Sequence record: EF380022.1
DNA from: Escherichia phage phiX174
DNA length: 5,386 nucleotides
Reading direction: 5' to 3' (one strand)
Each line of letters starts with the position of its first letter. The stretch's first letter is position 1. Position numbers and translations under genes: made by a program. Below the pieces are notes generated by a model. The model did not search any database. It worked only from the letters and a program-made list of their open reading frames with translations, and was not told the origin of the DNA. This document shows, piece after piece, positions 1 through 5,386 of the stretch.

Positions 1-51
1 GAGTTTTATCGCTTCCATGACGCAGAAGTTAACACTTTCGGATATTTCTGA
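1..51 (+). CDS. B: 3' end of internal scaffolding protein B ORF, continuing from 5075..5386; stop TGA at 49-51
   Basis: Frame from 5384-5386 (gca) continues gag ttt tat cgc ttc cat gac gca gaa gtt aac act ttc gga tat ttc tga; C-terminus ...EFYRFHDAEVNTFGYF matches protein B. Confidence 0.92.
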   Translation, partial: EFYRFHDAEVNTFGYF

Positions 52-136
52 TGAGTCGAAAAATTATCTTGATAAAGCAGGAATTACTACTGCTTGTTTA
101 CGAATTAAATCGAAGTGGACTGCTGGCGGAAAATGA
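1..136 (+). CDS. A: 3' end of replication initiation protein A (and A*) ORF, continuing from the window end across the circular junction; stop TGA at 134-136
   Basis: Reading frame entering from 5385-5386+1 (cag) stays open to TGA 134-136; encodes ...SFIASMTQKLTLSDISDESKNYLDKAGITTACLRIKSKWTAGGK, recognised as the A C-terminus. Partial only because the circle is linearised here. Confidence 0.93.
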   Translation, partial: SFIASMTQKLTLSDISDESKNYLDKAGITTACLRIKSKWTAGGK

Positions 137-221
137 GAAAATTCGACCTATCCTTGCGCAGCTCGAGAAGCTCTTACTTTGCGACTTTTCGCCATCAACT
201 AACGATTCTGTCAAAAACTGA
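51..221 (+). CDS. K: protein K, 56 aa (MSRKIILIKQELLLLVYELNRSGLLAENEKIRPILAQLEKLLLCDFSPSTNDSVKN)
   Basis: ATG at 51 overlaps the B stop (tgatg, 49-53); open to TGA 219-221; overlaps the A tail and C start in a third frame. Absent from the ORF track because it is shorter than the track minimum. Confidence 0.88.
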   Translation: MSRKIILIKQELLLLVYELNRSGLLAENEKIRPILAQLEKLLLCDFSPSTNDSVKN

Positions 222-369
222 CGCGTTGGATGAGGAGAAGTGGCTTAATATGCTTGGCACGTTCGTTAAGGACTGGTTTAGATATGAGTCACATTTTGTT
301 CATGGTAGAGATTCTCTTGTTGACATTTTAAAAGAGCGTGGATTACTATCTGAGTCCGATGCTGTTTAA
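133..369 (+). CDS. C: DNA maturation/packaging protein C, 78 aa here; ends at TAA 367-369, 8 codons before the canonical C stop (TGA 391-393)
   Basis: ATG 133-135 overlaps the A stop (ATGA, 133-136). Translation MRKFDLSLRSSRSSYFATFRHQLTILSKTDALDEEKWLNMLGTFVKDWFRYESHFVHGRDSLVDILKERGLLSESDAV then TAA. The track ORF 115..369 is the same frame with a GTG extension; ATG 133 is the canonical start. Confidence 0.85.
   Translation: MRKFDLSLRSSRSSYFATFRHQLTILSKTDALDEEKWLNMLGTFVKDWFRYESHFVHGRDSLVDILKERGLLSESDAV
320..349 (+). promoter_or_regulatory. candidate sigma70 promoter PD within the 3' part of gene C, driving D-E-J-F-G-H
   Basis: Perfect -35 TTGACA at 320-325; 18-nt spacer; -10-like TACTAT at 344-349; predicted start near 356-358, consistent with the known phiX174 D promoter location. 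Confidence 0.6.
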
Positions 370-389
370 CCACTAATAGGTAAGAAATC

Positions 390-848
390 ATGAGTCAAGT
401 TATTGAACAATCTGTACGTTTCCAGACCGCTTTGGCCTCTATTAAGCTCATTCAGGCTTCTGCCGTTTTGGATTTAACCGAAGATGATTTCGATTTTCTG
501 ACGAGTAACAAAGTTTGGATTGCTACTGACCGCTCTCGTGCTCGTCGCTGCGTTGAGGCTTGCGTTTATGGTACGCTGGACTTTGTGGGATACCCTCGCT
601 TTCCTGCTCCTGTTGAGTTTATTGCTGCCGTCATTGCTTATTATGTTCATCCCGTCAACATTCAAACGGCCTGTCTCATCATGGAAGGCGCTGAATTTAC
701 GGAAAACATTATTAATGGCGTCGAGCGTCCGGTTAAAGCTGCTGAATTGTTCGCGTTTACCTTGCGTGTACGCGCAGGAAACACTGACGTTCTTACTGAC
801 GCAGAAGAAAACGTGCGTCAAAAATTACGTGCAGAAGGAGTGATGTAA
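390..848 (+). CDS. D: external scaffolding protein D, 152 aa
   Basis: Track ORF 390..848; protein MSQVIEQSVRFQTALASIKLIQASAVLDLTEDDF... recognised as phiX174 D; AGG at 378-380 nine nt upstream; stop TAA 846-848 overlaps the J start (taatg). Confidence 0.95.
   Translation: MSQVIEQSVRFQTALASIKLIQASAVLDLTEDDFDFLTSNKVWIATDRSRARRCVEACVYGTLDFVGYPRFPAPVEFIAAVIAYYVHPVNIQTACLIMEGAEFTENIINGVERPVKAAELFAFTLRVRAGNTDVLTDAEENVRQKLRAEGVM
568..843 (+). CDS. E: lysis protein E, 91 aa, embedded in D in the +1 frame (single-gene lysis protein, MraY inhibitor)
   Basis: ATG 568 with GAGG at 555-558; MVRWTLWDTLAFLLLLSLLLPSLLIMFIPSTFKRPVSS...; N-terminal hydrophobic helix with Pro21 retained; stop TGA 841-843. Track ORF 520..843 is the same frame with a TTG extension. 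Codon 586-588 is TGG, so this is not the am3 amber allele. Confidence 0.93.
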   Translation: MVRWTLWDTLAFLLLLSLLLPSLLIMFIPSTFKRPVSSWKALNLRKTLLMASSVRLKLLNCSRLPCVYAQETLTFLLTQKKTCVKNYVQKE

Positions 849-964
849 TGTCTAAAGGTAAAAAACGTTCTGGCGCTCGCCCTGGTCGTCCGCAGCCGTT
901 GCGAGGTACTAAAGGCAAGCGTAAAGGCGCTCGTCTTTGGTATGTAGGTGGTCAACAATTTTAA
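848..964 (+). CDS. J: small basic DNA-binding/packaging protein J, 38 aa (MSKGKKRSGARPGRPQPLRGTKGKRKGARLWYVGGQQF)
   Basis: ATG 848 overlapping the D stop; AGGAG at 836-840; 12 of 38 residues are Lys/Arg; stop TAA 962-964. Too short for the ORF track. Confidence 0.92.
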   Translation: MSKGKKRSGARPGRPQPLRGTKGKRKGARLWYVGGQQF

Positions 965-969
965 TTGCA

Positions 970-983
970 GGGGTTTCGGCTCC
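970..983 (+). terminator. J-F intergenic hairpin (TJ terminator / mRNA-stabilising stem-loop), here with two wobble pairs
   Basis: ggggt-ttcg-gctcc: five stem pairs, of which 972/981 and 974/979 are G-T (G-U in RNA); followed by T-rich ttacttg. Lies between the J stop (964) and F start (1001). Confidence 0.5.
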
Positions 984-1000
984 TTACTTGAGGATAAATT

Positions 1001-2284
1001 ATGTCTAATATTCAAACTGGCGCCGAGCGTATGCCGCATGACCTTTCCCATCTTGGCTTTCTTGCTGGTCAGATTGGTCGTCTTATTACCATTTCAACTA
1101 CTCCGGTTATTGCTGGCGACTCCTTCGAGATGGACGCTGTTGGCGCTCTCCGTCTTTCTCCATTGCGTCGTGGCCTTGCTATTGACTCTACTGTAGACAT
1201 TTTTACTTTTTATGTCCCTCATCGTCACGTTTATGGTGAACAGTGGATTAAGTTCATGAAGGATGGTGTTAATGCCACTCCTCTCCCGACTGTTAACACT
1301 ACTCGTTATATTGACCATGCCGCTTTTCTTGGCACGATTAACCCTGATACCAATAAAATCCCTAAGCATTTGTTTCAGGGTTATTTGAATATCTATAACA
1401 ACTATTTTAAAGCGCCGTGGATGCCTGGCCGTACCGAGGCTAACCCTAATGAGCTTAATGAAGATGATGTTCGTTATGGTTTCCGTTGCTGCCATCTCAA
1501 AAACATTTGGACTGCTCCGCTTCCTCCTGAGACTGAGCTTTCTCGCCAAATGACGACTTCTACCACATCTATTGACATTATGGGTCTGCAAGCTGCTTAT
1601 GCTAATTTTCATACTGACCAAGAACGTGATTACTTCATGCAGCGTTATCGTGATGTTATTTTTTCATTTGGAGGTAAAACCTCTTATGATGCTGATAACC
1701 GTCCTTTACTTGTCATGCGCTCTAATTTCTGGGCATCTGGCTATGATGTTGATGGAACTGACCAAACGTCGTTAGGCCAGTTTTCTGGTCGTGTTCAACA
1801 GACCTATAAACATTCTGTGCCGCGTTTCTTTGTTCCTGAGCATGGTACTATGTTTACTCTTGCGCTTGTTCGTTTTCCGCCTACTGCGACTAAAGAGATT
1901 CAGTATCTTAACGCTAAAGGTGCTTTGACTTATACCGATATTGCTGGCGACCCTGTTTTGTATGGCAACTTGCCGCCGCGTGAAATTTCTATGAAGGATG
2001 TTTTCCGTTCTGGTGATTCGTCTAAGAAGTTTAAGATTGCTGAGGGTCAGTGGTATCGTTATGCGCCTTCGTATGTTTCTCCTGTTTATCACCTTCTTGA
2101 AGGCTTCCCATTCATTCAGGAACCGCCTTCTGGTGATTTGCAAGAACGCGTACTTATTCGCCACCATGATTATGACCAGTGTTTCCAGTCCGTTCAGTTG
2201 TTGCAGTGGAATAGTCAGGTTAAATTTAATGTGACCGTTTATCGCAATCTGCCGACCACTCGCGATTCAATCATGACTTCGTGA
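1001..2284 (+). CDS. F: major capsid protein F, 427 aa
   Basis: Track ORF 1001..2284; MSNIQTGAERMPHDLSHLGFLAGQIGRLITISTTPVIAGDSFEMDAVGALRL... recognised as phiX174 F; GAGGA at 990-994; stop TGA 2282-2284. Confidence 0.96.
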   Translation: MSNIQTGAERMPHDLSHLGFLAGQIGRLITISTTPVIAGDSFEMDAVGALRLSPLRRGLAIDSTVDIFTFYVPHRHVYGEQWIKFMKDGVNATPLPTVNTTRYIDHAAFLGTINPDTNKIPKHLFQGYLNIYNNYFKAPWMPGRTEANPNELNEDDVRYGFRCCHLKNIWTAPLPPETELSRQMTTSTTSIDIMGLQAAYANFHTDQERDYFMQRYRDVIFSFGGKTSYDADNRPLLVMRSNFWASGYDVDGTDQTSLGQFSGRVQQTYKHSVPRFFVPEHGTMFTLALVRFPPTATKEIQYLNAKGALTYTDIAGDPVLYGNLPPREISMKDVFRSGDSSKKFKIAEGQWYRYAPSYVSPVYHLLEGFPFIQEPPSGDLQERVLIRHHDYDQCFQSVQLLQWNSQVKFNVTVYRNLPTTRDSIMTS

Positions 2285-2315
2285 TAAAAGATTGAGTGTG
2301 AGGTTATAACGCCGT

Positions 2316-2343
2316 AGCGGTAAAAATTTTAATTTTTGCCGCT
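2316..2343 (+). other. F-G intergenic inverted repeat / hairpin (agcggtaaaaatt..aatttttgccgct); this region is the complementary-strand origin (PriA/n' primosome assembly site) in phiX174
   Basis: Arms 2316-2327 and 2332-2343 pair with a single G-T wobble (2321/2338). A GCGAAGC mini-hairpin motif follows at 2358-2364. Functional assignment is from established phiX174 biology, not from the sequence alone. Confidence 0.55.
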
Positions 2344-2394
2344 GAGGGGTTGACCAAGCGAAGCGCGGTAGGTTTTCTGCTTAGGAGTTTAATC

Positions 2395-2922
2395 ATGTTT
2401 CAGACTTTTATTTCTCGCCATAATTCAAACTTTTTTTCTGATAAGCTGGTTCTTACTTCTGTTACTCCAGCTTCTTCGGCACCTGTTTTACAGACACCTA
2501 AAGCTACATCGTCAACGTTATATTTTGATAGTTTGACGGTTAATGCTGGTAATGGTGGTTTTCTTCATTGCATTCAGATGGATACATCTGTCAACGCCGC
2601 TAATCAGGTTGTTTCTGTTGGTGCTGATATTGCTTTTGATGCCGACCCTAAATTTTTTGCCTGTTTGGTTCGCTTTGAGTTTTCTTCGGTTCCGACTACC
2701 CTTCCGACTGCCTATGATGTTTATCCTTTGGATGGTCGCCATGATGGTGGTTATTATACCGTCAAGGACTGTGTGACTATTGACGTCTTTCCCCGTACGC
2801 CGGGCAATAATGTTTATGTTGGTTTCATGGTTTGGTCTAACTTTACCGCTACTAAATGCCGCGGATTGGTTTCGCTGAATCAGGTTATTAAAGAGATTAT
2901 TTGTCTCCAGCCACTTAAGTGA
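2395..2922 (+). CDS. G: major spike protein G, 175 aa
   Basis: ATG 2395 with AGGAG at 2383-2387; [46 protein letters not shown]...; stop TGA 2920-2922. Track ORF 2350..2922 is the same frame with a TTG extension. Confidence 0.95.
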
Positions 2923-2930
2923 GGTGATTT

Positions 2931-3917
2931 ATGTTTGGTGCTATTGCTGGCGGTATTGCTTCTGCTCTTGCTGGTGGCGTCATGTCTAAATTGTTTGGAG
3001 GCGGTCAAAAAGCCGCCTCCGGTGGCATTCAAGGTGATGTGCTTGCTACCGATAACAATACTGTAGGCATGGGTGATGCTGGTATTAAATCTGCCATTCA
3101 AGGCTCTAATGTTCCTAACCATGATGAGGCCGCCCCTAATTTTGTTTCTGGTGCTATGGCTAAAGCTGGTAAAGGACATCTTGAAGGTACGTTGCAGGCT
3201 GGCACTTCTGCCGTTTCTGATAAGTTGCTTGATTTGGTTGGACTTGGTGGCAAGTCTGCCGCTGATAAAGGAAAGGATACTCGTGATTATCTTGCTGCTG
3301 CATTTCCTGAGCTTAATGCTTGGGAGCGTGCTGGTGCTAATGCTTTCTCTGCTGGTATGGTTGACGCCGGATTTGAGAATCAAAAAGAGCTTACTAAAAT
3401 GCAACTGGACAATCAGAAAGAGATTGCCGAGATGCAAAATGAGACTCAAAAAGAGATTGCTGGCATTCAGTCGGCGACTTCACGCCAGAATACGAAAGAC
3501 CAGGTATATGCACAAAATGAGATGCTTGCTTATCAACAGAAGGAGTCTACTGCTCGTGTTGCGTCTATTATGGAAAACACCAATCTTTCCAAGCAACAGC
3601 AGGTTTCCGAGATTATGCGCCAAATGCTTACTCAAGCTCAAACGGCTGGTCAGTATTTTACCAATGACCAAATCAAAGAAATGACTCGCAAGGTTAGTGC
3701 TGAGGTTGACTTAGTTCATCAGCAAACGCAGAATCAGCGGTATGGTTCTTCTCATATTGGCGCTACTGCAAAGGATATTTCTAATGTCGTCACTGATGCT
3801 GCTTCTGGTGTGGTTGATATTTTTTATGGTATTGATAAAGCTGTTGCCGATACTTGGAACAATTTCTGGAAAGACGGTAAAGCTGATGGTATTGGCTCTA
3901 ATTTGTCTAGGAAATAA
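2931..3917 (+). CDS. H: DNA pilot / minor spike protein H, 328 aa
   Basis: Track ORF 2931..3917; GAGG at 2921-2924; Gly-rich N-terminus [16 protein letters not shown]..., central repeat region with QKE[LI] motifs; stop TAA 3915-3917. Confidence 0.95.
3381..3479 (+). repeat. H: three tandem degenerate 33-nt (11-codon) repeats inside gene H encoding [11 protein letters not shown] / [11 protein letters not shown] / [11 protein letters not shown]
   Basis: Units at 3381-3413, 3414-3446 and 3447-3479 each start ca[ag]aaagag; the 11-residue period fits a coiled-coil segment of the H DNA-pilot protein. Confidence 0.7.
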
Positions 3918-3926
3918 CCGTTAGGA

Positions 3927-3955
3927 TTGACATCCTCCCAATTGTATGTTTTCAT
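3927..3955 (+). promoter_or_regulatory. candidate promoter PA in the H-A intergenic region
   Basis: Perfect -35 TTGACA at 3927-3932; 17-nt spacer; weak -10-like TTTCAT at 3950-3955 (4 of 6 match to TATAAT). The exact -10 is uncertain. Confidence 0.45.
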
Positions 3956-3980
3956 GCCTCCAAATCTTGGAGGCTTTTTT
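3956..3980 (+). terminator. rho-independent terminator-like hairpin plus T6 tract (TH) directly upstream of the gene A start codon
   Basis: gcctccaa (3956-3963) pairs with ttggaggc (3967-3974) around loop atc, followed by tttttt (3975-3980). The 3' arm contains the gene A Shine-Dalgarno GGAGG. Confidence 0.7.
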
Positions 3981-5386
3981 ATGGTTCGTTCTTATTACCC
4001 TTCTGAATGTCACGTTGATTATTTTGACTTTGAGCGTATCGAGGCTCTTAAACCTGCTATTGAGGTTTGTGGCATTTCTACTCTTTCTCAATCCCCAATG
4101 CTTGGCTTCTATAAGCAGATGGATAACCGCATTAAGCTCTTGGAAGAGATTCTGTCTTTTCGTATGCAGGGCGTTGAGTTCGATAATGGTGATATGTATG
4201 TTGACGGCCATAAGGCTGCTTCTGACGTTCGTGATGAGTTTGTATCTGTTACTGAGAAGTTAATGGATGAATTGGTACAATGCTACAATGTGCTCCCCCA
4301 ACTTGATATTAATAACACTATAGACCATCGCCCCGAAGGGGACGAAAAATGGTTTTTAGAGAACGAGAAGACGGTTACGCAGTTTTGCCGCAAGCTGGCT
4401 GCTGAACGCCCTCTTAAGGATATTCGCGATGAGTATAATTACCCCAAAAAGAAAGGTATTAAGGATGAGTGTTCAAGATTGCTGGAGGCCTCCACTATGA
4501 AATCGCGTAGAGGCTTTACTATTCAGCGTTTGATGAATGCAATGCGACAGGCTCATGCTGATGGTTGGTTTATTGTTTTTGACACTCTCACGTTGGCTGA
4601 CGACCGATTAGAGGCGTTTTATGATAATCCCAATGCTTTGCGTGACTATTTTCGTGATATTGGTCGTATGGTTCTTGCTGCCGAGGGTCGCAAGGCTAAT
4701 GATTCACACGCCGACTGTTATCAGTATTTTTGTGTGCCTGAGTATGGTACAGCTAATGGCCGTCTTCATTTCCATGCGGTGCACTTTATGCGGACACTTC
4801 CTACAGGTAGCGTTGACCCTAATTTTGGTCGTCGGGTACGCAATCGCCGCCAGTTAAATAGCTTGCAAAATACGTGGCTTTATGGTTACAGTATGCCTAT
4901 CGTAGTTCGCTACACGCAGGACGCTTTTTCACGTTCTGGTTGGTTGTGGCCTGTTGATGCTAAAGGTGAGCCGCTTAAAGCTACCAGTTATATGGCTGTT
5001 GGTTTCTATGTGGCTAAATACGTTAACAAAAAGTCAGATATGGACCTTGCTGCTAAAGGTCTAGGAGCTAAAGAATGGAACAACTCACTAAAAACCAAGC
5101 TGTCGCTACTTCCCAAGAAGCTGTTCAGAATCAGAATGAGTCGCAACTTCGGGATGAAAATGCTCACAATGACAAATCTGTCCACGGAGTGCTTAATCCA
5201 ACTTACCAAGCTGGGTTACGACGCGACGCCGTTCAACCAGATATTGAAGCAGAACGCAAAAAGAGAGATGAGATTGAGGCTGGGAAAAGTTACTGTAGCC
5301 GACGTTTTGGCGGCGCAACCTGTGACGACAAATCTGCTCAAATTTATGCGCGCTTCGATAAAAATGATTGGCGTATCCAACCTGCA
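3981..5386 (+). CDS. A: replication initiation protein A (HUH-type rolling-circle endonuclease), 5' 1406 nt; ORF continues to 1..136 for 513 aa in total
   Basis: ATG 3981 with GGAGG at 3969-3973. I translated codon by codon to the window end and found no stop. MVRSYYPSECH...; HUH-type motif LHFHAVHF (His-Phe-His at 4767-4775) and catalytic tyrosine pair in GFYVAKYVNKK (Tyr codons 5007-5009 and 5019-5021). Missing from the ORF track because there is no stop before the window end. Confidence 0.94.
   Translation, partial: MVRSYYPSECHVDYFDFERIEALKPAIEVCGISTLSQSPMLGFYKQMDNRIKLLEEILSFRMQGVEFDNGDMYVDGHKAASDVRDEFVSVTEKLMDELVQCYNVLPQLDINNTIDHRPEGDEKWFLENEKTVTQFCRKLAAERPLKDIRDEYNYPKKKGIKDECSRLLEASTMKSRRGFTIQRLMNAMRQAHADGWFIVFDTLTLADDRLEAFYDNPNALRDYFRDIGRMVLAAEGRKANDSHADCYQYFCVPEYGTANGRLHFHAVHFMRTLPTGSVDPNFGRRVRNRRQLNSLQNTWLYGYSMPIVVRYTQDAFSRSGWLWPVDAKGEPLKATSYMAVGFYVAKYVNKKSDMDLAAKGLGAKEWNNSLKTKLSLLPKKLFRIRMSRNFGMKMLTMTNLSTECLIQLTKLGYDATPFNQILKQNAKREMRLRLGKVTVADVLAAQPVTTNLLKFMRASIKMIGVSNL
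4299..4328 (+). other. ori: viral (+) strand origin of rolling-circle replication inside gene A; A-protein nick expected between G4305 and A4306
   Basis: Sequence caacttgatattaataacactatagaccat matches the conserved 30-nt microvirus origin at 29 of 30 positions as I recall it (canonical final base is C); it sits in the expected place in A. Confidence 0.8.
4497..5386 (+). CDS. A*: A* - in-frame internal start within A (shorter A isoform), continuing to 1..136
   Basis: In-frame ATG at 4497-4499 preceded by GGAGG at 4484-4488 (8-nt spacing), encoding MKSRRGF...; the position matches the known A* start of phiX174. Confidence 0.75.
   Translation, partial: MKSRRGFTIQRLMNAMRQAHADGWFIVFDTLTLADDRLEAFYDNPNALRDYFRDIGRMVLAAEGRKANDSHADCYQYFCVPEYGTANGRLHFHAVHFMRTLPTGSVDPNFGRRVRNRRQLNSLQNTWLYGYSMPIVVRYTQDAFSRSGWLWPVDAKGEPLKATSYMAVGFYVAKYVNKKSDMDLAAKGLGAKEWNNSLKTKLSLLPKKLFRIRMSRNFGMKMLTMTNLSTECLIQLTKLGYDATPFNQILKQNAKREMRLRLGKVTVADVLAAQPVTTNLLKFMRASIKMIGVSNL
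4863..4892 (+). promoter_or_regulatory. candidate promoter PB inside gene A, upstream of B
   Basis: -35-like TTGCAA at 4863-4868; 18-nt spacer; -10-like TACAGT at 4887-4892. Motif match only. Confidence 0.3.
5075..5386 (+). CDS. B: internal scaffolding protein B, 5' part; ORF continues to 1..51 for 120 aa in total; entirely inside A in another frame
   Basis: ATG 5075 with AGGAG at 5063-5067; MEQLTKNQAVATSQEAVQNQNESQLRDENAHNDKSVHGVLNPTYQAGLRRDAVQPDIEAERKKRDEIEAGKSYCSRRFGGATCDDKSAQIYARFDKNDWRIQPA... open to the window end. Confidence 0.92.
   Translation, partial: MEQLTKNQAVATSQEAVQNQNESQLRDENAHNDKSVHGVLNPTYQAGLRRDAVQPDIEAERKKRDEIEAGKSYCSRRFGGATCDDKSAQIYARFDKNDWRIQPA

Follow-up and report, generated by a model that had tools for sequence, protein, structure and literature searches.

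The stretch of DNA analysed here in its entirety (5386 nt; hereinafter, the window) raises two connected questions: whether it is a complete circular genome of the phage phiX174 and, if so, which phiX174 population it represents.

Circular closure and gene content

The length of the window is the unit length of phiX174, and a megablast search against 5386-nt phiX174 records yields a single ungapped segment that aligns positions 1-5386 with positions 1-5386. Base-by-base comparison with NC_001422 identifies 57 substitutions and no indels, which corresponds to 98.9% identity. At the junction of the two ends, bases 5382-5386 (CTGCA) together with base 1 (G) rebuild CTGCAG, the PstI recognition site. 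This hexanucleotide is absent from the linear window (1.26 occurrences expected by chance), so that the circle contains it only once, at the junction. A sequence-only reading of the same DNA, which interpreted it as a complete phiX174 circle cut at the PstI site, is borne out by these results; neither rearrangements nor indels, named in that reading as contrary evidence, are found relative to phiX174 or phage S13 (57 and 145 substitutions, respectively).

When the ends are joined, gene A runs from 3981 to 136, A* from 4497 to 136 (341 aa) and gene B from 5075 to 51, each with an ATG start, a single stop and the canonical position; the in-frame ends at 136 and 51 are those previously anticipated for A and B, and A* likewise ends at 136. 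De novo ORF calling on the circle finds exactly two plus-strand ORFs that span the junction, the B frame and the A frame. Conversely, A, A* and B are missing from the linear ORF list because ORFs running off an end are dropped; the circular ORF calls confirm that their absence is an artefact, and the closing frames support the earlier treatment of the window as a circle. From the frames and the PstI site, both computed to close across the ends, we infer that the molecule is physically circular. The window comprises the entire circular genome of the single-stranded DNA phage Sinsheimervirus phiX174 (Bullavirinae, Microviridae), given as the viral plus strand in Sanger's numbering, which starts at the PstI site, and it needs to be analysed as a circle, otherwise A, A* and B are overlooked. 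The particle would be expected to contain single-stranded DNA in a T=1 icosahedral capsid, with E. coli C as the host, an expectation that follows solely from the phiX174 identity.

Circular ORF calling also returns a 62-aa minus-strand ORF across the junction, which is regarded as a chance occurrence because, to our knowledge, no microvirus gene is encoded on the minus strand. A search of both strands against Rfam at the gathering thresholds matched no family.

All eleven genes (A, A*, B, K, C, D, E, J, F, G and H) are encoded on one strand in the canonical order, with ATG starts and nested or overlapping frames, and the ten distinct proteins each match their own microvirus Pfam family above the gathering cut-off (Table 1). 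The coordinates of K, D, E, J, F, G and H are canonical. In the established biology of phiX174, rolling-circle synthesis is driven by protein A, which cuts the origin at 4305/4306, C turns replication towards packaging, B and D are scaffolds of the F/G/H procapsid, J accompanies the DNA into the capsid, and E is responsible for cell lysis.

Table 1. Genes and other features of the window (amino acid and nucleotide changes are relative to NC_001422)
Feature	Position	Strand	Remarks
Gene A, 5' part (replication initiator/nickase)	3981..5386, continues 1-136	+	513 aa; stop at codon 514; Phage_GPA 1.4e-60; identical to ABN49765.1
A* start, in frame with A	ATG 4497	+	ends joined
A and A*, 3' end	1..136	+	stop TGA 134-136 overlaps C start ATG 133-135
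Gene B, 5' part (internal scaffolding)	5075..5386, continues 1-51	+	120 aa; Phage_B 1.2e-49
B, 3' end	1..51	+	stop TGA 49-51; base 51 shared with K start
Gene K	51..221	+	56 aa; L46F; Protein_K 6.5e-41
Gene C, truncated	133..369	+	78 aa; Phage_C match at residues 5-72, the whole profile
Gene D (external scaffolding)	390..848	+	152 aa; T5I; gpD 1.7e-97
Gene E (lysis)	568..843	+	91 aa; P58L, R89Q; nested in D in another frame; Microvir_lysis 5.2e-20
Gene J (DNA-binding packaging protein)	848..964	+	38 aa; unchanged; Microvir_J
Gene F (major capsid)	1001..2284	+	427 aa; Phage_F 5e-170; identical to ABN49773.1, ABN49872.1, ABN49883.1
Gene G (major spike)	2395..2922	+	175 aa; Phage_G 5.2e-123; identical to ABN49774.1
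Gene H (pilot/minor spike)	2931..3917	+	328 aa; Microvir_H 6.3e-212; identical to ABN49775.1
Sigma-70-like site, best in scan	320..349	+	TTGACA N18 TACTAT just upstream of gene D; consensus match only
J-F intergenic G+C hairpin	969..984	+	C974T and C981T turn two G-C pairs into G.T/G.U; weakened
F-G intergenic long hairpin	2302..2355	+	one T.G pair gained at the stem base through A2315T
H-A intergenic terminator-like hairpin	3956..3974	+	followed by T run; unchanged
Origin of viral-strand synthesis, inside gene A	4299..4328	+	30 nt; 29/30 bases match CAACTTGATATTAATAACACTATAGACCAC; C4328T is the last base

The sequence-only reading listed the eleven genes in canonical order, and this holds; the canonical overlaps that it also assumed hold except for that between C and D. 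The substitution C367T creates a premature ochre codon (TAA, 367-369; Q79*) that shortens C from 86 to 78 aa and places its stop 21 nt before the D start, whereas the canonical stop would be at 391-393; since C ends at 369, the canonical C/D ATGA overlap (390-393) is unused. EF380009, EF380031 and EF380032 are annotated with this truncation too, and of the 151 records that match the 60-mer around position 367, 12 have it exactly, all of them EF3800xx records. The Shine-Dalgarno sites claimed for the genes are clear for A, A*, B, E, J, F, G and H; K, C and D have a weak motif or none.

Lineage, substitution spectrum and provenance

The 57 substitutions are readily placed in a known laboratory lineage. 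All 11 markers that distinguish AP100 (EF380009), the lab-adapted ancestor, from NC_001422 are present in the window, C367T among them, as are 9 of the 10 markers of DEL1 (EF380031). Two bases, 1111T and 3346T, are common to the window and DEL1 and, among 13 sequenced relatives, occur in DEL1 only. The remaining marker is position 3189, where the window has the ancestral A and the DEL1 record a G; this mismatch reflects either a reversion or a founder unlike the sequenced DEL1 clone. At the protein level, A, F, G and H exactly match ABN49765.1, ABN49773.1, ABN49774.1 and ABN49775.1, respectively, each on a 5386-nt contig, and the ABN49765.1-ABN49775.1 block falls between the proteins of EF380021 (ABN49754-64) and those of EF380023 (ABN49776-86). 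Of the accessions EF380009-EF380032, EF380022 alone has no entry in the phage collection. An ordinary wild-type or sequencing-control phiX174, such as an Illumina spike-in carried into an assembly, could be suspected given that phiX174 is a very common contaminant and that complete copies of it are present in MZ417522 (Mycolicibacterium phage J1) and MT947439 (Protaetiibacter phage SSC1), whose names refer to unrelated hosts. This origin is, however, highly improbable for DNA that has 57 differences from NC_001422 and at least 38 from any record of the phage collection, shows the marker set of AP100 and DEL1 and encodes the exact proteins ABN49765, ABN49774 and ABN49775.

The spectrum of the changes is strongly skewed. 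Relative to NC_001422, viral-strand C>T changes account for 44 of the 57 substitutions and G>A changes for 4; relative to AP100, there are 46 substitutions, 40 of them C>T (87%) and one G>A (binomial p = 6e-12); and the 38 differences from DEL1 include 35 C>T (92%). Single-stranded DNA genomes are prone to cytosine deamination, and 44 C>T versus 4 G>A is the direction expected if a natural phiX174-like isolate had undergone spontaneous deamination or APOBEC-like editing. Nevertheless, the C>T changes show no deaminase-type context, the 5' neighbours (G10, C9, T9, A7) and the 3' neighbours (A11, T9, C9, G6) both being near background. Furthermore, wild relatives are more distant (NC37, 96.4%; WA11, 94.5%; S13, 145 differences), the comparison with S13 is far more balanced (59 C>T versus 37 T>C), the window nests within the laboratory lineage by the AP100 and DEL1 markers, and the exact protein matches link it to the 2007 submission. 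A natural isolate altered by deamination is therefore very unlikely. The private mutations are not clustered along the genome (KS p = 0.89), and the window lacks the signature of a mutT host (A>C, T>G) that the sister lines 3F90 and 10D90 show.

The distribution of the changes over codons bears the mark of selection. Compared with NC_001422, the window has 31 amino acid changes spread over A, B, K, D, E, F, G and H, in addition to Q79* in C. The 35 private C>T changes comprise 18 synonymous, 13 missense, 4 intergenic and no nonsense substitutions, against expectations of 8.1, 22.3, 1.3 and 3.2, respectively (chi-square p = 2e-5); synonymous sites are enriched 4.6-fold (Fisher p = 4e-5). The synonymous excess and the lack of nonsense changes are as expected of a viable lineage. 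An almost pure C>T spectrum could also come from sequencing damage or chemistry artefacts (deaminated template or partial bisulfite conversion), which would be expected to strike codon positions at random. The enrichment and the missing nonsense changes argue against such an origin, as do the seven lineage-private changes in the capsid gene F, all of them synonymous and leaving a protein identical to those of DEL1 and DEL4, and the recurrence of C403T, C1648T, C5141T and T3178A in sister lines. In addition, the source paper reports that clones of plaque-forming phage were sequenced (PMC1845161), and an artefact is the least credible of the alternatives considered here.

Hydroxylamine modifies cytosines, which are then read as T. 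In treated virions, only the cytosines of the encapsidated plus strand are modified, which yields plus-strand C>T with almost no G>A, and selection for plaque formation then purges nonsense and many missense changes. The C>T excess is a signature of chemical mutagenesis, and it would be misleading to ascribe it to evolution in nature, to a deaminase of the host or to damaged DNA. The window is almost certainly phiX174 record EF380022, a hydroxylamine-line clone from the study of Silander, Tenaillon and Chao (PLoS Biol 2007) that descends from DEL1; at the DNA level, this identification draws on the four exact protein matches and the lineage markers. Judging from the series of isolate names, the isolate is probably '3D90' (bottleneck size 3, 90 transfers). 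In that experiment, the line founded by DEL1, a deliberately crippled, low-fitness ancestor, was taken through strong bottlenecks, and its virions were mutagenised with hydroxylamine each time they were transferred. The published protocol used 250 mM hydroxylamine at each transfer, with 89% of the changes being C>T and an ancestor containing 1,151 cytosines (PMC1845161); the cytosine count of AP100 is 1,151, in agreement with the paper's ancestor. The label 'phiX174-like' given in the sequence-only reading falls short, as the genome is phiX174 itself, in the form of a specific mutagenised laboratory lineage whose 44 C>T among 57 substitutions went unnoticed. The genome is already known, a published laboratory derivative of phiX174 and not a new virus.

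Altered origin, hairpins and expression signals

Several of the substitutions fall in cis elements. C4328T changes the last base of the origin, where the NC_001422 annotation places the A protein nick site at 4306; this element shows no other variation across the phiX174, S13 and G4 sequences compared. In the J-F intergenic region, C974T and C981T roughly halve the stability of the hairpin: the DNA fold of -6.7 kcal/mol in the reference is lost in the window, and the RNA fold drops from -12.4 to -6.8 kcal/mol. The F-G hairpin, which we take to be the site where the primosome (PriA/n') assembles to start complementary-strand synthesis, has a DNA fold of -15.0 kcal/mol in the window versus -14.7 in the reference (z ~ -4).

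Consensus scans detected no excess of promoters (11 sites versus 8.3 in shuffled sequences) or terminators (6 versus 5.5); all that they recover is the TTGACA/TACTAT site near D and the hairpin between H and A, and they are not taken as evidence. Within the 22-nt stretches upstream of the starts, 2 of the 57 substitutions are found by position: G833A lies 15 nt ahead of the J start and C981T 20 nt ahead of the F start, each further upstream than the Shine-Dalgarno motif.

The lineage that carries C4328T, C974T with C981T, and a C protein without its last 8 residues is presumably viable. It is possible, if rather doubtful, that the altered last base of the origin, the weakened J-F hairpin and the shortened C together constitute a natural experiment on phiX174 cis elements and protein ends. 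Should these changes be truly neutral, or compensated elsewhere, they would refine what counts as essential in phiX174.

Comparison with related phages

The window shares its length, PstI start, gene order and coordinates with phiX174 (NC_001422/J02482) and differs from it by the 57 substitutions, including those that truncate C at codon 79 and change one origin base. The closest record in the phage collection is DEL1 (99.3%), with the same F protein. The sister lines compared (3E90, 10E90, 10F90, 3F90, 10D90, 100B90, 100C90 and 250A-C55) have the same ancestor markers, including Q79* in C, and a similar mutational load (24-52 substitutions relative to AP100); their C>T share of 75-89% resembles that of the window, except for 3F90 and 10D90 (about 60%). 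They differ from the window at 60-83 positions in pairwise comparisons, and 26 of the 38 private changes of the window are seen in no sister line, with parallel recurrences at 403, 1648, 5141 and 3178.

Beyond phiX174, S13 (M14428) is also 5386 nt long and, after rotation by 1469 bases, is colinear with the window, with 145 substitutions and no indels; it has the same PstI junction sequence and a 30-nt origin identical to that of phiX174, but its record is permuted differently and starts in the H-A intergenic region. G4 and alpha3, from other genera of the Bullavirinae, have the same gene order (A-A*-B-K-C-D-E-J-F-G-H) and origins that match the phiX174 one at 30/30 and 28/30 bases, respectively, whereas their genomes are longer (5577 and 6087 nt) and show only about 76% identity over just a third of the genome.

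Genome closure and gene content

The window (5386 bases) is a complete phiX174 circle cut at the PstI site; the sequence-only reading had described a phiX174-like circle permuted there. A megablast search against 50,697 phage records identifies 161 that span at least 80% of the window; the best matches are 5386-nt phiX174 records that align in one piece, 1-5386 against 1-5386. The terminal CCTGCA together with the first base, G, rebuilds CTGCAG, and a search of both strands of the linear window detects no further CTGCAG, so that the circle has a single PstI site located exactly at the junction. This start point is the convention of Sanger numbering. The predicted end-to-end colinearity is borne out as well: position-by-position comparison with the phiX174 reference NC_001422 reveals 57 substitutions and no indels, and the record of phage S13 (M14428), which opens elsewhere (gene A at 64), is 5386 nt long and, rotated by 1469 bases, becomes colinear with the window without indels (145 substitutions). 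S13 and NC_001422 differ from each other at 113 positions. Complete phiX174 sequences with about 99% identity are present also in MZ417522.1 ("Mycolicibacterium phage J1", 24,953 nt, positions 169-5631) and MT947439.1 ("Protaetiibacter phage SSC1", 5386 nt), most likely reflecting sequencing-control contamination of the databases.

When ORFs are called de novo on two joined copies of the sequence, exactly two on the plus strand span the junction, B and the A frame. Genes A, A* and B were missing from the linear ORF list because ORFs running off an end were dropped, an artefact as had been supposed. The ten distinct proteins match the Pfam families Phage_GPA, Phage_B, Protein_K, Phage_C, gpD, Microvir_lysis, Microvir_J, Phage_F, Phage_G and Microvir_H, with scores that clear the gathering thresholds by a wide margin. 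The claim of a canonical gene set with canonical overlaps stands for the coordinates of K, D, E, J, F, G and H and for the one-base and four-base overlaps B/K, A/C and D/J, but not for the end of gene C and the C/D overlap. Beyond its ATG, the A frame continues upstream without a stop to a TTG at 3927, and an upstream-extended A' gene is annotated in the S13 record. A minus-strand ORF also crosses the junction; we treat it as a chance occurrence because, to our knowledge, microviruses have no gene on that strand.

Coordinates of the features discussed (ends joined where the start exceeds the end)
Feature	Start	End	Strand	Remarks
Gene A	3981	136	+	513 aa; ATG start, single terminal stop once ends joined
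Gene A*	4497	136	+	341 aa; ATG start, single terminal stop once ends joined
Gene B	5075	51	+	120 aa; ATG start, single terminal stop once ends joined
Upstream extension of A frame	3927	3980		TTG at 3927; 531 aa
Minus-strand ORF	5216	18	-	62 aa, ATG; 5216-5386 joined to 1-18
B/K overlap	49	53		TGATG, intact
A/C overlap	133	136		ATGA, intact
D/J overlap	846	850		TAATG, intact
Gene C, truncated	133	369		78 aa
Premature stop in gene C	367	369		Q79*, TAA
Former C/D overlap	390	393		ATGA retained; no longer the C stop
J-F intergenic hairpin	969	984
Origin	4299	4328		30 nt

Truncated gene C and the origin of the isolate

The substitution C367T converts codon 79 of gene C to a premature ochre, so that the protein has 78 rather than 86 residues. 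Accordingly, C lacks its last 8 residues, ends 21 nt before the D start and does not overlap D; the downstream ATGA no longer serves as its stop. The shortened protein still matches the Phage_C profile from end to end (residues 5-72). The same 133..369 annotation is found in EF380031 (DEL1), EF380032 (DEL4) and EF380009 (AP100, the laboratory-adapted ancestor), and Q79* was already carried by AP100 and is shared by all EF3800xx records that were fetched and annotated. The exact 60-mer around position 367 occurs in EF3800xx records only (12 of 151 matching records). Given that the exact 78-aa protein is encoded on 19 contigs of the protein collection, the longest of 5513 nt, this form may also occur outside the 2007 experiment.

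DEL1, DEL4 and AP100 are also the records nearest to the window (99.1-99.3% identity in megablast, phage records). They belong to EF380009-EF380032, the genome set of the study by Silander, Tenaillon and Chao (PLoS Biol 2007; PMC1845161). In that study, the ancestor was a phiX174 clone after 100 transfers, and low-fitness ancestors were obtained by mutagenesis and bottlenecks with small plaques picked; lines then went through 90 transfers with bottlenecks of 3 to 100, or 55 transfers with a bottleneck of 250, with 250 mM hydroxylamine applied to virions at every transfer and plating on E. coli mutT, and one clone per population was sequenced (PMC1845161). AP100 contains exactly 1,151 cytosines, the number reported for the ancestor, for which C>T would yield 309 synonymous or intergenic, 736 non-synonymous and 106 stop-related outcomes (PMC1845161); recomputed on the DEL1 background, these classes are 311, 730 and 106. 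The window carries all 11 differences of AP100 from NC_001422 and 9 of 10 DEL1-specific markers; two of these, 1111T and 3346T, are shared, among the 13 relatives fetched, with DEL1 only. The study describes a single population founded by the very low-fitness ancestor with a bottleneck of three (PMC1845161); the window probably comes from it, since no other line has the DEL1-only markers.

Exact matches to the window proteins are ABN49765.1 (A), ABN49773.1 (F), ABN49774.1 (G) and ABN49775.1 (H), those for A, G and H each on a single 5386-nt contig. Of the accessions EF380009 to EF380032, only EF380022 is absent from the phage records searched, and the four protein accessions fall in the block that this gap leaves; we conclude that the window is EF380022. 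The adjacent records are EF380021 (isolate 100C90, proteins ABN49754-64) and EF380023 (3E90, ABN49776-86); the naming series (100C90, the window, 3E90, 3F90, 10D90) suggests that the isolate is probably 3D90. At position 3189 (gene H codon 87), DEL1, DEL4, 100B90 and 100C90 have G, and the window and all other lines, other DEL-derived ones included, have the ancestral A; either G>A reversion happened more than once, or the founder was polymorphic or mis-called at this site.

Substitution spectrum and selection

Relative to NC_001422, 44 of the 57 substitutions are C>T on the plus strand and 4 are G>A; relative to AP100, the window has 46 substitutions (24-52 in the sister lines of the same experiment), 40 of them C>T (87%). 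Hydroxylamine modifies cytosines of the packaged plus strand, and the altered base is copied as T, so that C>T without G>A is expected; the counts relative to AP100 are 40 and 1 (binomial p = 6e-12, given 1151 C and 1254 G). The source study reports 89% C>T and cites Tessman 1968 for the chemistry (PMC1845161). An enzyme such as a deaminase could also produce C>T changes, but the search for a neighbour preference and for positional clustering along the genome detects neither, which argues against this source.

The changes are filtered by selection. The 35 C>T changes private to the window relative to DEL1 comprise 18 synonymous, 13 missense, 4 intergenic and no nonsense, against 8.1, 22.3, 1.3 and 3.2 expected (chi-square p = 2e-5; synonymous versus non-synonymous odds ratio 4.6, p = 4e-5). 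All 7 private changes in the capsid gene F are synonymous, and three of the four private changes listed for doubly coding sequence (186, 740 and 5141) are silent in C, D or A but missense in the overlapping K, E or B (the fourth, 267, falls in C only). Sequencing damage as the source of the C>T changes is excluded by this pattern. Several substitutions are shared with lines from other ancestors, namely T3178A (H L83H; seven other lines), C403T (D T5I; five), C1648T (four) and C5141T (B P23S; four). Such sharing looks like parallel substitution, probably under selection; the original study describes one site changed in more than four lines (PMC1845161).

Intergenic hairpins, replication origin and known relatives

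The J-F intergenic hairpin carries two independent changes, C974T and C981T, neither found in any sister line; each replaces a G-C pair by a wobble pair. In predicted folds, the G+C hairpin is lost as DNA (-6.7 kcal/mol before the changes) and roughly halved in stability as RNA (-12.4 to -6.8 kcal/mol). The long hairpin between F and G gains one T.G pair through A2315T and keeps its fold, and the terminator-like H-A hairpin is intact.

The 30-nt origin is identical across NC_001422, S13, G4 and 13 of 13 sister and ancestor records, whereas in alpha3 two spacer bases differ. Among the records compared, only the window carries C4328T at the last origin base, a change synonymous in A; phiX174, S13, G4, alpha3 and the 13 sister and ancestor records all keep this base unchanged, and no record contains an exact full-length match to the surrounding 60-mer. 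Position 4329, directly outside the origin, is changed in five sister lines.

Thus, the sequence-only observation and its interpretation hold with two corrections, that gene C is truncated and that the genome is not wild type: the window is phiX174 itself, in the form of an already known, published and deposited laboratory variant.
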